The notes under the pieces: model-generated
The model's input: the letters and a program-made list of their open reading frames with translations, nothing else
Databases searched by the model: none
What the model was told of the DNA's origin: nothing
Shown here: piece by piece, positions 870 through 42,266 of the stretch
Position numbering within the stretch: the stretch's first letter is position 1
Layout: every line of letters begins with the position of its first letter
Made by a program: the position numbers and the translations under genes
Source of the DNA: Stylophora pistillata
Taxonomy: Eukaryota
Length of the DNA: 64,000 bases
NCBI RefSeq assembly: GCF_002571385.2
Contig: NW_019217902.1
Coordinates: forward strand, 189,664-253,663
Reading direction: 5' to 3'

Positions 870-1014
870 GTAATCCCAGTTGCTATTGGACGGGAAGTCG
901 GACCTGACGGCATCAAAATTCCACCTCACGAAAACAAAGTTATAGTGGACCCTGTACCTGATGTGAAAAAGCCGGATGTACTGGTTAAAAATATAACATT
1001 AGTTATTTTGATCG
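870..1014 (+). CDS. Exon: C-terminal part of a VWA domain (VIPVAIG...)
   Basis: gaag|GTA...ATCG|gtaagg, phase 0-1; VIPVAIG resembles a VWA beta-strand. Confidence 0.7.
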
Positions 1015-41900: not shown

Positions 41901-42266
41901 GTTTTATTCTACTAAAGCCGGGATTAGCTCCTATGGTATTTCTGGCTACTAAGCTGACTTTATTTGTAGTTTTTAACCCATGATGAATTATTTTCTTTTT
42001 TTAAGGTGAAAAAGCTGTTTATCTTTTTCACGGACGGCAGAAATACAGACACTGTGGCGGACTTAAGTGTTAAAGCGAACCAAATCAAGAACATCCCGAA
42101 CATGACGTCGATTGCAGTCGGAGTTGGGGATATAGTAGTTCGCGATGAACTGCTGACAATAGCTTCCAGTGAGGACGAGGTTTTTGAACTCGAAGAATTC
42201 GAAGAGCTGAAACTGCTCATAGATAAACTGAGACCCAGGGAGTGCCAAGGAGATGATTTTCCATAG
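870..42266 (+). CDS. Multi-exon agrin-like ECM protein (VWA-FSx3-VWA-GON-VWA-FSx28-LamG-EGF-LamG-EGF-VWA), 5'-incomplete, 45 exons
   Basis: GT-AG exons traced by hand; phases chain consistently to TAG at 42264-42266; summed exon length 10,626 nt is divisible by 3. Two FS exons contain in-frame TGA (15222, 16276). Confidence 0.9.
1047..1325. repeat. Dispersed non-autonomous repeat with internal inverted repeats; related copy at about 22625-23035
   Basis: Shared motifs tcgacagtggt...ctgtact and ctcttatcgacaacggcaa...ggccaatca in both places. Confidence 0.6.
1878..2087 (+). CDS. FS/Kazal exon 1
   Basis: 10-Cys FS pattern, PVCGSNSRTYWNEC; phase 1-1. Confidence 0.9.
2440..2655 (+). CDS. FS/Kazal exon 2 (not in ORF track)
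   Basis: PCSGVKC...CHDIYKPVCGSDGNSYLTEC; phase 1-1. Confidence 0.9.
3385..3597 (+). CDS. FS/Kazal exon 3 (not in ORF track)
   Basis: PCNDVVC...PVCGSDMVTYTSGC; phase 1-1. Confidence 0.9.
3802..4113. repeat. Palindromic dispersed repeat (hairpin 3802-3950); relatives at 10444-10552 (inverted), about 35365-35680 and about 37490-37785
   Basis: ttcttattaaccaagc...gcttggttaataaga arms around accgagcgcagcgaggt. Confidence 0.7.
4674..5228 (+). CDS. VWA domain exon, degenerate MIDAS
   Basis: DLAFVFGASG...TRVALVDY...GARPFAEDILVVMTQG; phase 1-1. Confidence 0.9.
5415..6029 (+). CDS. GON domain exon (ADAMTS9/20, GON-1 type)
   Basis: RSCAEVK...IYCHNM...PQEYITL...TNFSKVRLD...YGTAGDCYS...AKCGGWCGRC; phase 1-1. 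Confidence 0.88.
6225..6460 (+). mobile_element. Degenerate tRNA-derived SINE
   Basis: B-box-like gggttcgagtc followed by a typical SINE body. Confidence 0.4.
6578..6903 (+). CDS. VWA domain exon A
   Basis: CPFPMDVVFALDSSSD...THVGVI; phase 1-0. Confidence 0.9.
7040..7455 (-). mobile_element. 5'-truncated CR1/L2-clade LINE, 3' end
   Basis: ORF2 C-terminus (APGYLS...GQRTFFYSAVTLWNSL...FKRRL), AATAAA and (TATG/TA)n tail on the minus strand. Confidence 0.8.
7866..8097 (+). CDS. VWA domain exon B
   Basis: VPRSLVVLVAG...GIQIFVVAVG; phase 0-1. Confidence 0.88.
8433..8648 (+). CDS. FS/Kazal exon 4
   Basis: 10-Cys FS, VCGSDRVTYDNDC; phase 1-1. Confidence 0.9.
9021..9233 (+). CDS. FS/Kazal exon 5
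   Basis: PVCGVNNRTYINKC; phase 1-1. Confidence 0.9.
9845..10060 (+). CDS. FS/Kazal exon 6
   Basis: VCGSDGKTYLNEC; phase 1-1. Confidence 0.9.
10826..11044 (+). CDS. FS/Kazal exon 7
   Basis: VCGSDGQSYINKC; phase 1-1. Confidence 0.9.
11555..11997. repeat. Non-autonomous repeat with terminal hairpin
   Basis: Inverted arms gtgcaatttggaat...attccaaattgcac and aattgcac...gtgcaatt. Confidence 0.6.
12078..12293 (+). CDS. FS/Kazal exon 8
   Basis: PVCGTDGKTYRNEC; phase 1-1. Confidence 0.9.
12576..12791 (+). CDS. FS/Kazal exon 9
   Basis: VCGSDEKTYINLC; phase 1-1. Confidence 0.9.
12878..13093 (+). CDS. FS/Kazal exon 10
   Basis: PVCGTNGRTYESEC; phase 1-1. Confidence 0.9.
13637..13861 (+). CDS. FS/Kazal exon 11
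   Basis: ICGDNGKTYRSVC; phase 1-1. Confidence 0.9.
14134..14340 (+). CDS. FS/Kazal exon 12
   Basis: PVCGSDGRTYENEC; phase 1-1. Confidence 0.9.
14781..15014 (+). CDS. FS/Kazal exon 13
   Basis: GLVVVPC...VCGSDGETHTVYTNEC; phase 1-1. Confidence 0.9.
15133..15345 (+). pseudogene. FS/Kazal exon 14 with in-frame TGA at a conserved Cys (possible pseudo-exon)
   Basis: CVCPSHRD*PWKVDLICGSDG; TGA 15222-15224; intact AG/GT, phase 1-1. Confidence 0.8.
15400..15618. repeat. Degenerate (GACT)n microsatellite
   Basis: Runs of ctga/gact. Confidence 0.75.
15620..16020 (+). repeat. tRNA-derived tandem repeat, about 258-bp unit, 1.6 copies; minus-strand copy at about 48448-48635
   Basis: A-box-like tcaattggtag and B-box ggttcaaatccc; aatcccgtacaggcctgat and the downstream sequence are duplicated. 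Confidence 0.7.
16226..16441 (+). pseudogene. FS/Kazal exon 15 with in-frame TGA (possible pseudo-exon)
   Basis: CAKNAVCFIK*NGLHECRC...VCGSDGKTYDNEC; TGA 16276-16278; intact splice sites. Confidence 0.8.
17410..17622 (+). CDS. FS/Kazal exon 16
   Basis: PVCGSDGIEYPNEC; phase 1-1. Confidence 0.9.
18135..18353 (+). CDS. FS/Kazal exon 17
   Basis: VCGTDGKTYINEC; phase 1-1. Confidence 0.9.
18751..18957 (+). CDS. FS/Kazal exon 18
   Basis: PVCGSNGNTYDNEC; phase 1-1. Confidence 0.9.
19688..19894 (+). CDS. FS/Kazal exon 19
   Basis: VCASNGKSYTNEC; phase 1-1. Confidence 0.9.
20587..20808 (+). CDS. FS/Kazal exon 20
   Basis: PVCGSDGITYASEC; phase 1-1. Confidence 0.9.
21261..21488 (+). CDS. FS/Kazal exon 21
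   Basis: GLVVLPC...VCGSDGRRYDNPC; phase 1-1. Confidence 0.9.
21997..22215 (+). CDS. FS/Kazal exon 22 (not in ORF track)
   Basis: ACRQAKC...CPLESDEVCADDTITYRTEC; phase 1-1. Confidence 0.88.
23268..23480 (+). CDS. FS/Kazal exon 23
   Basis: PVCGSDGKQYISTC; phase 1-1. Confidence 0.9.
24718..24930 (+). CDS. FS/Kazal exon 24
   Basis: PICASDGKTYVNEC; phase 1-1. Confidence 0.9.
25320..25532 (+). CDS. FS/Kazal exon 25
   Basis: PVCGSDGETYINEC; phase 1-1. Confidence 0.9.
25819..26028 (+). CDS. FS/Kazal exon 26 (not in ORF track)
   Basis: CPLVYNPTCGTDRKSYFNLC; phase 1-1. Confidence 0.9.
26165..26400 (+). mobile_element. Degenerate SINE
   Basis: Core ctccacccaggagagtaaatg...gcatccaatccaggggg. Confidence 0.5.
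26470..26720 (-). mobile_element. SINE of the same family, inverted
   Basis: Reverse complement reads ccacccaggagtgtatatgggtaccggcga...gcattccattcagggggg. Confidence 0.55.
26862..27086 (+). CDS. FS/Kazal exon 27 (not in ORF track)
   Basis: NPCALTSC...VCGSNGKTYSNTC; phase 1-1. Confidence 0.88.
27659..27865 (+). CDS. FS/Kazal exon 28
   Basis: PVCGTDKRSYLNHC; phase 1-1. Confidence 0.9.
28279..28485 (+). CDS. FS/Kazal exon 29
   Basis: PVCGTNKKTYVNRC; phase 1-1. Confidence 0.9.
28495..28718. repeat. Near-perfect 112-bp tandem duplication
   Basis: attgaagtcctcgtatttt... starts at 28495 and at 28607. Confidence 0.9.
29245..29457 (+). CDS. FS/Kazal exon 30
   Basis: PVCGSNGKTYINEC; phase 1-1. Confidence 0.9.
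29871..30080 (+). CDS. FS/Kazal exon 31
   Basis: PVCGTDGQTYLNEC; phase 1-1. Confidence 0.9.
30465..30566 (+). CDS. Linker exon with polybasic furin-type site
   Basis: ttag|TC...C|gtaagt, 102 nt, phase 1-1; VCVGVNCPRPARRSRRSRTKRAVFKQLVSRSLTL. Confidence 0.7.
31386..31569 (+). CDS. Laminin G domain 1, exon A
   Basis: GFRGNGYLEY...MKFRP...GVIL...DFIFILLKRGQVIF; phase 1-2. Confidence 0.88.
32028..32237 (+). CDS. Laminin G domain 1, exon B (not in ORF track)
   Basis: YDLGEGP...LNDWNQLRVYR...MFLGG; phase 2-2. Confidence 0.88.
33207..33469 (+). CDS. LamG1 end + EGF domain
   Basis: GFYGLM...PCEHGGGC...CDCPKGFLGDRC; phase 2-1. Confidence 0.88.
33644..33738. repeat. 21-bp minisatellite, about 4.5 copies
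   Basis: (tgaattggttatccctgggag)n. Confidence 0.9.
34572..34779 (+). CDS. Laminin G domain 2, exon A
   Basis: VPYFQG...IRPEQNNGLIMYSG...FISLAIINGQIQF; phase 1-2. Confidence 0.85.
34851..35357. repeat. Non-autonomous repeat with terminal hairpin
   Basis: tatatactaaaacagtggatag start; aacaactattcac...gatgaatagttgtt hairpin at the end. Confidence 0.6.
36035..36280 (+). mobile_element. Penelope-like element terminus with degenerate hammerhead motif; related fragment at 50075-50172
   Basis: Inverted/direct pLTR-like arrangement around ctgacgaagggctaactctcgaaacatcag. Confidence 0.6.
36285..36650. repeat. Degenerate (GACT)n microsatellite
   Basis: ctgactgactgac runs. Confidence 0.7.
36664..36909 (+). 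CDS. Laminin G domain 2, exon B (not in ORF track)
   Basis: FKLRQG...LNAWSSI...VYIGG; phase 2-2. Confidence 0.83.
37148..37416 (+). CDS. LamG2 end + EGF domain
   Basis: GFKGCM...PCQNDGKC...CDCKLGFTGPQC; phase 2-1. Confidence 0.88.
38292..38629 (+). CDS. C-terminal VWA exon A, intact MIDAS
   Basis: DVGFAIDGSNS...THVALLQY...TDIGDGL...NGMR; phase 1-0. Confidence 0.9.
39154..40085 (+). pseudogene. Second (accessory) gene of the transposon, disrupted
   Basis: QRLSANVQGKCQKY/NRIGPLTLV...CDVLAAERGP...KVIHIRFVE; split by a MITE and a frameshift. Confidence 0.65.
39314..39631. mobile_element. Nested MITE (hAT-like termini, 5-bp TSD)
   Basis: CAGAGGCAGATCCAGG...CCTGGATCCGCCACTG; TSD CAACC at 39309-39313 and 39632-39636. 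Confidence 0.85.
40245..41066 (-). pseudogene. Spliced DDE/integrase-core transposase remnant
   Basis: EMDGSGQLLGYRSMQQKVREIHGLNVP, then exon 40539-40347 GVDCTMSLDGHDKLCGYQKVMFPLCIYSAQDTYS; frameshifts and stops. Confidence 0.8.
42006..42266 (+). CDS. C-terminal VWA exon B (terminal coding exon)
   Basis: VKKLFIFFTDG...IAVGVG...ELLTIAS; TAG stop; AATAAA at 42379. Confidence 0.9.
   Translation: MKKLFIFFTDGRNTDTVADLSVKANQIKNIPNMTSIAVGVGDIVVRDELLTIASSEDEVFELEEFEELKLLIDKLRPRECQGDDFP

Follow-up and report, generated by a model that had tools for sequence, protein, structure and literature searches.

A probable giant agrin-like mesoglea protein of Stylophora pistillata, approached from the 3' quarter of its gene

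The 64,000-nucleotide stretch of Stylophora pistillata DNA analysed here (the window; C119:189664-253663, C119 being contig NW_019217902.1) carries a long row of follistatin-type (FS) exons together with VWA, GON, LamG and EGF domains, and it raises the question of whether these belong to one gene, how far that gene extends, and what kind of matrix protein it encodes. Coordinates with the prefix C119 are those of the contig; all others are those of the window. We suggest, with a probability of roughly 0.6, that the window covers the 3' quarter of one spliced gene for a secreted, agrin-like mesoglea linker protein of ~15,300 residues, presumably made from a single full-length transcript.

A six-frame scan of the window returned 31 Kazal-type motifs, all on the plus strand and none on the minus strand. 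Each is part of an FS module (follistatin-N plus Kazal) contained in a single exon of 207-234 nt, with 1-1 phase and AG/GT ends; the full ten-cysteine set is present in 30 of the 31, the remaining module having TGA for one cysteine in the alignment. Pairwise identity among the modules averages 36% and reaches 49% at most. In the window Pfam also assigned three whole VWA domains, GON (E 7e-59), two LamG and two EGF. Kazal was called in all four FS exons that were scanned (of 31), a genome-wide Kazal search recovers most of them, and no family was returned for four of 20 queries: two pieces of LamG, the short exon 870 and the first exon of the upstream chain described below. Altogether 44 window exons splice in frame, all at canonical sites, into 10,524 nt or 3,508 codons with the terminal TAG counted in; AATAAA occurs past this stop, at 42379 and later. 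A preliminary description of this DNA had placed 31 FS modules with VWA, GON and LamG-EGF in one domain order, which the motif scan, the Pfam calls and the in-phase chain bear out; its count of at least 3,540 codons was about 30 too high.

Splicing of much of this chain is supported by RNA. The VWA-GON stretch is present in 20 of the 24 sequencing runs listed, ten of which are RNA on record, and assembled contigs from four polyA runs, each of a different study, were aligned to window 700-20699; such contigs testify to presence and to exon joints, not to expression level or transcript ends. Fifteen of 33 joints are listed, all of them GT..AG and all found in all four runs. The contigs connect one exon to the next between 870 and 19688 and cover VWA, GON and VWA contiguously, and the exon model agrees with the RNA record coordinates up to 15014. 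Single contigs reach 7,881 and 6,935 nt, and the longer one would, by calculation, end within the last FS exon, provided that no additional exon is skipped. Two intact FS exons near the 5' edge of the window are left out of the transcripts in all four runs (Table 1), a point absent from the preliminary description, as are two in-frame TGA codons considered below. On the 5' side of exon 870, two contigs continue by 162 and 234 nt. The LamG-EGF-VWA tail, which lies outside the RNA comparison, is tied to the FS array by matching phases. An intron contains, at 7100-7730 on the minus strand, a reverse-transcriptase retroelement fragment, and the RNA contigs include related copies with ~94% identity.

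The gene does not begin in the window. The plus strand upstream carries a dense array of VWA exons, and Pfam confirms nine of the nine VWA exons and the one FS exon tested there. The last upstream exon accounts for positions 3-136 of the VWA profile and has a phase-0 end; exon 870, which begins in phase 0, completes the domain, so that the two pieces match in both phase and profile position. A hand-built chain of 84 upstream and 44 window exons (128 in total) stays in frame with no frameshift over ~146 kb, from a methionine at C119:85,701 that opens a hydrophobic leader, by eye a likely signal peptide, to the stop at 42266. Its internal splice sites are AG/GT throughout, the sole exception being a GC donor at C119:162418. 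The predicted product has about 15,340 codons (15,341), a mass of 1.69 MDa, and contains 63 VWA, 37 FS, two GON, two LamG and two EGF domains. Positions 870 to 42266, to which the preliminary description was confined, would thus be only its last quarter, the gene reaching ~105 kb further upstream and being about four times larger than described. Its main feature lies outside the window, where 55 VWA domains follow one another without a break, and all of them lack the first Asp of the metal-ion-dependent adhesion site (MIDAS). Among all 63 domains this Asp is kept in five and the DxSxS motif in two, and the array does not show the MIDAS pattern of metal-dependent VWA adhesins. No VWA pair exceeds 45% identity and there is no periodicity, which argues for an old array and against an assembly duplication or artefact.

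Several observations weigh against a single gene of this size. Two runs of N (7,771 and 3,454 nt) lie within the upstream chain, and the larger may conceal further exons or a gene boundary. The joints seen in RNA all lie between 870 and 19688, downstream of the 84 upstream exons and short of the FS-to-LamG junction and the last eight exons. Public annotations also stop early or are fragmented: the Acropora muricata RefSeq protein XP_067051278 ('agrin-like') stops at 1,113 residues, a Logan protein stops at 569, and in Nematostella the pieces have separate gene IDs. These points would fit a cluster of at least two co-oriented genes (e.g. NtA-FS-GON-VWA, VWA-only and VWA-GON-FS-LamG), or shorter main isoforms, which we consider rather unlikely. 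Both shorter proteins run on into an intron, however, and the RNA extends 5' of exon 870 into the split VWA; moreover, the domain exons are all open, with phase-matched splice sites and a stop at the end of the last one only. The Acropora protein aligns in collinear fashion, with 65% identity, to residues 1-1085 of the model and thus provides independent confirmation of the first ten exons.

The one-gene model is also in keeping with the conservation of its exons, the order of which is shared with other corals exon by exon. A metagenome scan reduced 127 candidate stretches to four loci. One of these (L039) has 13 intact FS exons, of which 12 pair one-to-one and in order with window exons at 56-79% identity, compared with mostly 33-49% for non-orthologous FS pairs. 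In the scyphozoan jellyfish Sanderia a protein matches FS-GON-FS at 44%. A search of representative proteins gave at least 150 matches, and among the 30 scanned with Pfam one (P0029) combines FS and GON. Searches for full-length homologues, in which proteins were visible to 2,000 residues, yielded matches to single exons or to GON proteins of no relation to this one, and no long named orthologue was among ten more GON clusters; the sequence collection is incomplete, with an exact match for one of ten window or locus open reading frames. With exon orthologues in corals, FS-GON-FS in a jellyfish and a corresponding gene run in Nematostella, the protein, which the preliminary description had called lineage-specific, is not so in a narrow sense.

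The layout is that of agrin, with the same order of an NtA-like head, FS repeats and a LamG-EGF tail. As in agrin, the follistatin modules are tandem and have ten cysteines, and the C-terminal LamG domains are separated by EGF spacers. In searches of PDB, agrin came first for the FS profile and, among 12 sequences, for the middle LamG-1 exon (E 1e-16), and the best match of the first LamG-1 exon was neurexin. The ancestral agrin set is given as NtA, FS, EGF and LamG in section 17 of PMC2874008, and if the NtA-like domain is counted, the coral model holds the full set as that section defines it. The differences are nonetheless large. Agrin has ~9 FS domains against 37 here, and the coral model adds 63 VWA and two GON and is ~7 times longer; vertebrate agrin has three LamG domains against two, and the coral model ends in a VWA domain. 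Vertebrate-type agrin contains SEA and laminin-EGF domains, which the coral model lacks: C119 carries none of 15 SEA matches and none of 116 laminin-EGF matches (the latter from 150 of 305 candidates scored). Agrin further carries heparan sulfate at Ser-Gly clusters, and the coral model has few candidate glycan sites of this type; by a simple pattern, two of its 73 SG dipeptides (in 15,341 residues) lie in an acidic or repeated context. Shared repeats can imitate orthology, as noted in PMC3927612. The protein is agrin-like in layout and a candidate member of the agrin family; the earlier suggestion of an exon-shuffled matrix protein is supported, as is the agrin-like character of its ends.

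The head deserves a closer look. The 111 residues that follow the leader gave no match by sequence in Pfam or PDB. In the ESM Atlas, the Stylophora domain matched agrin NtA with 0.91 (rank 12, after unnamed bacterial clusters) and TIMP with 0.90, and for the Acropora domain NtA was the best named cluster (0.92), followed by NTR and TIMP clusters. Set against this assignment, the Atlas matches are borderline (166-168 shared features, the guide being 170), unnamed bacterial clusters outrank NtA, Pfam makes no NtA call, and the fold prediction came from three sequences and has a pLDDT of 45. An NtA profile search of the genome gave zero candidates and recovered no control either. We therefore treat the domain as NtA/NTR-like as a lead only.

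Other matrix proteins share single features with the model. Collagen VI, matrilins and coral coadhesin are likewise secreted matrix proteins with VWA domains in tandem. Collagen VI, however, has a Gly-X-Y helix, and the coral model has no run of five or more Gly-X-Y; nor were TSP1 or F5/8 domains seen in it. Collagen VI alpha-3 has about 12 VWA domains, far fewer than the 55 consecutive ones without the MIDAS Asp here. The GON domain is shared with ADAMTS9/20 and GON-1 at about 36-45% identity, but in these a reprolysin protease and TSP1 precede a terminal GON; the coral model has neither, and its GON is internal and doubled, with flanking VWA and FS exons that RNA joins to the window copy. 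GON is also frequent in amphioxus proteins other than ADAMTS, which marks it as a mobile module.

Elsewhere in the genome, C563:181498-188010 and C106:1882-2418 carry VWA-GON pairs ~70% identical to that of the window. The gene there is another, short one; NCBI names it ADAMTS9, although no protease domain was seen, and the pair clusters with named Stylophora proteins. Both places were rejected as paralogous giant genes, having only the VWA-GON pair in other settings. C683 and C790 were likewise rejected as true agrin, being FS/Kunitz/WAP mosaics with no LamG in the part read, and at C683:52000-91200 (minus strand) there is, by eye, a large mosaic gene with ~20 FS among Kunitz-, WAP- and thyroglobulin-like exons. 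More array-type VWA exons occur at C58:474447-501522 (both strands) and on C669, C244 and C3, possibly in coadhesin-like genes. A further GON protein, P0131 (2,338 aa), combines GON repeats with LamG3, HYR, GEVED and a Por secretion tail and is of a bacterial-type secreted kind.

Where might such a protein reside? In Nematostella, 17 of the 25 IDs in the run NV2.14069-14093 are in the mesoglea proteome, with 540 unique peptides in total (PMC12549020 supplements). Those named are, in order, a Kazal inhibitor (automatic name matrilin 4), vWFA-15, vWFA-3, vWFA-4, 'Collagen 6-like-4, partial', vWFA-GON-Kazal and Agrin-related-1 (PMC12549020), and this is the domain order of the coral model. The Nematostella entries thus show the domain kinds of the coral protein in the order of their gene IDs and are abundant in isolated mesoglea; they differ in being separate proteins of different matrisome classes, with IDs absent from the main text of PMC12549020, and the best match of their VWA pieces is coadhesin B3EWZ3. 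The abundance of the run over nine samples co-varies (mean r 0.92), and the four flanking IDs correlate with NV2.14092 at r -0.69, -0.66, 0.89 and -0.89. Two points here tell against our interpretation. One of the four flanking controls also correlates, and adult enrichment is widespread in mesoglea proteins, so that the co-variation is weak evidence; and we infer the orthology from names and gene order rather than from a sequence alignment. We nevertheless consider a cnidarian mesoglea protein, not a coral skeletal novelty, the likely identity. Literature searches, mostly without subscription journals, found no published description of the whole protein; names for some of its fragments already exist in the Nematostella proteome table.

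The preliminary description had left the site open between mesoglea, mucus and the organic matrix of the skeleton. That the protein is mainly a skeletal or a mucus/adhesive component seems to us improbable, even if the idea has some basis in the literature: octocoral skeletons are rich in agrin-like proteins with Kazal repeats (PMC7853314, PMC7533068), the skeleton of stony corals contains VWA proteins (PMC8086859), and an agrin-like gene is raised in the anemone pedal disc (PMC6626399). The octocoral 'agrin-like' skeletal proteins have long FS/Kazal arrays, broken up in short-read assemblies, much like ours, but as far as those accounts go they comprise the agrin N-terminal moiety only or have a WAP end, and neither a VWA run nor GON is reported. 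That gland cells make one of the Nematostella pieces, NV2.14093 being among their markers (PMC12549020 supplements), would also fit this idea; yet these cells are gastrodermal, on the side that makes mesoglea, and the protein is found in non-calcifying cnidarians. In the stony-coral skeletal papers PMC7115838 and PMC8086859 the words 'agrin' and 'Kazal' do not appear, and the supplement files searched for PMC7853314, PMC7115838 and PMC9532382 contained none of our sequence motifs, although these files may lack peptide lists. Mesoglea is thus the best supported site, and the papers checked give no support to the skeletal one.

The chain contains four in-frame stops (Table 1), and these could mean that the Stylophora gene is a transcribed null allele or a decaying pseudogene with no full-length protein. 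The stops are of three kinds (TAG, TAA and two TGA), the two TGA exons are spliced in, and among seven matches there is no near-identical sense version of exon 15133-15345, the best reaching 83%; the last point means little, because the collection has exact matches for so few open reading frames. At the position of TGA 15222, all seven homologues and all three loci that reach it have Cys, and at that of TGA 16276 L039, the one orthologous locus reaching it, has Ala. The 128 exons, however, show no frameshift, and the stop rate resembles that of cadherin and other Kazal genes in the assembly. In a cadherin control from the same genome, 5 of 150 matches contained a stop (two truly mid-domain, three at exon edges), and in a Kazal control 3 of 123 did, of which two belong to other genes and lie mid-domain. 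This amounts to about 1.5-5 stops per 10,000 codons, as against 2.6 here (4 in 15,341). The mid-domain stops in cadherin and Kazal genes lie at C1:346307-346591 and C288:242196-242471 (L061, L063), C683:58004-58144 and C790:75046-75183. Nonsense codons thus appear to form a certain background in the assembly, which can mislead pseudogene or recoding calls elsewhere. In addition, six of nine visible RNA-genome exon differences are synonymous, compared with a random expectation of 22% (p 0.005-0.025), as judged from a selected subset of 40 of 119 differences, in which the exonic ones listed end at 13804 although there are differences beyond. We thus find a decaying gene improbable and think it quite likely that the stops are private to this assembly or haplotype. 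Recoding of the TGA codons as selenocysteine, or readthrough, is hardly credible and was rejected: one TGA does fall on a conserved cysteine, but the other lies at a non-Cys loop site, the remaining stops are TAG and TAA, homologues have ordinary residues, and Cys-to-TGA and Tyr-to-TAG changes also occur in unrelated genes of the assembly.

Table 1. Positions of the domain blocks and in-frame stops of the proposed gene.
Feature	Coordinates	Strand	Evidence or remark
Upstream three quarters: leader, NtA-like, 6 FS, GON, 60 VWA	C119:85701-185885	+	
Exon, last quarter of split VWA	870..1014	+	Starts in phase 0; first part upstream at C119:185476-185885
Two intact FS exons	1878-2087, 2440-2655	+	Left out of RNA contigs, joint 1013->3384, 4/4 runs
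FS exon	3385..3597	+	Motif scan, RNA contigs
VWA exon without MIDAS Asp	4674..5228	+	Pfam VWA E 3e-19
GON exon, second GON of gene	5415..6029	+	Pfam GON E 7e-59; RNA pieces
VWA split over two exons	6578-6903, 7866-8097	+	Pfam, RNA contigs
28 FS exons in a row, phase 1-1	8433..30080	+	RNA joints as far as 19688
LamG-1 and EGF	31386-31569, 32028-32237, 33207-33469	+	Pfam; junctions from phase match
LamG-2 and EGF	34572-34779, 36664-36909, 37148-37416	+	Pfam on 2/3 exons; junctions from phases
C-terminal VWA, DxSxS intact, terminal TAG	38292-38629, 42006-42266	+	Pfam, exon chain
In-frame TAG	C119:134354	+	Exon chain
In-frame TAA	C119:144214	+	Exon chain
In-frame TGA at conserved Cys of FS exon 15133-15345	15222..15224	+	Exon spliced in
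In-frame TGA in loop of FS exon 16226-16441	16276..16278	+	Exon spliced in

Downstream of the gene, the window contains a single-exon open reading frame of 1,730 codons (58176-63365, plus strand) with DUF4559 and weak NACHT/NB-ARC and TPR matches. A degraded copy lies at ~50100-51300 and more at C119:267-293 kb, forming a tandem NLR-like immune cluster with several broken members.

If the agrin-like giant is made as modelled, it would be secreted into the mesoglea by gastrodermal cells; work on ADAMTS9/GON-1 reports a role of the GON domain in the secretion of large cargo, which its GON domains may share. Agrin binds laminin with its head and receptors with its LamG tail, and on this precedent the NtA-like head may attach to basal-lamina laminin and the LamG tail to cell-surface receptors. 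The run of 55 VWA domains without the metal-binding Asp could serve as a metal-independent spacer and as a collagen-binding or self-associating string, and collagen VI and matrilins provide a precedent for VWA strings as spacer or collagen linker. The FS array would store or damp BMP/TGF-beta ligands, given that the FS-containing part of rat agrin binds BMP2/4 and TGF-beta1 (PMC2874008), and may also protect from proteases. Binding of laminin, receptors, collagen and ligands by the coral protein is thus predicted by analogy.

We lean slightly towards the broader view that cnidarians have in common a giant matrix protein, so far unrecognised, with 15,300 residues or more (~1.7 MDa, and larger still if the N runs conceal more VWA exons), an agrin stretched by 55-60 metal-free VWA domains and among the most abundant proteins of the mesoglea, which has been missed since every annotation divides it into as many as ~20 fragments labelled 'collagen VI-like', 'coadhesin-like', 'vWFA' or 'agrin-like'. 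As its modules are known and a proteome table already gives names to some of its fragments, it is a variant of the agrin type and not a new class; what is new is that the named fragments probably make up one giant, abundant, pan-cnidarian mesoglea protein. If it is indeed one polypeptide, it would be among the largest secreted proteins known, in the company of dumpy and MUC16, and could form a physical tie, some hundreds of nanometres long by an estimate from domain sizes, between basal lamina and collagen mesh. Many entries in cnidarian matrisome and skeleton lists would then collapse to one gene, the labels 'collagen VI' and 'coadhesin' in coral expression studies would need caution, and Nematostella would offer a knockable target for studying mesoglea mechanics and BMP storage. 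The finding also bears on the question of whether cnidarians possess agrin, and on its later fate.

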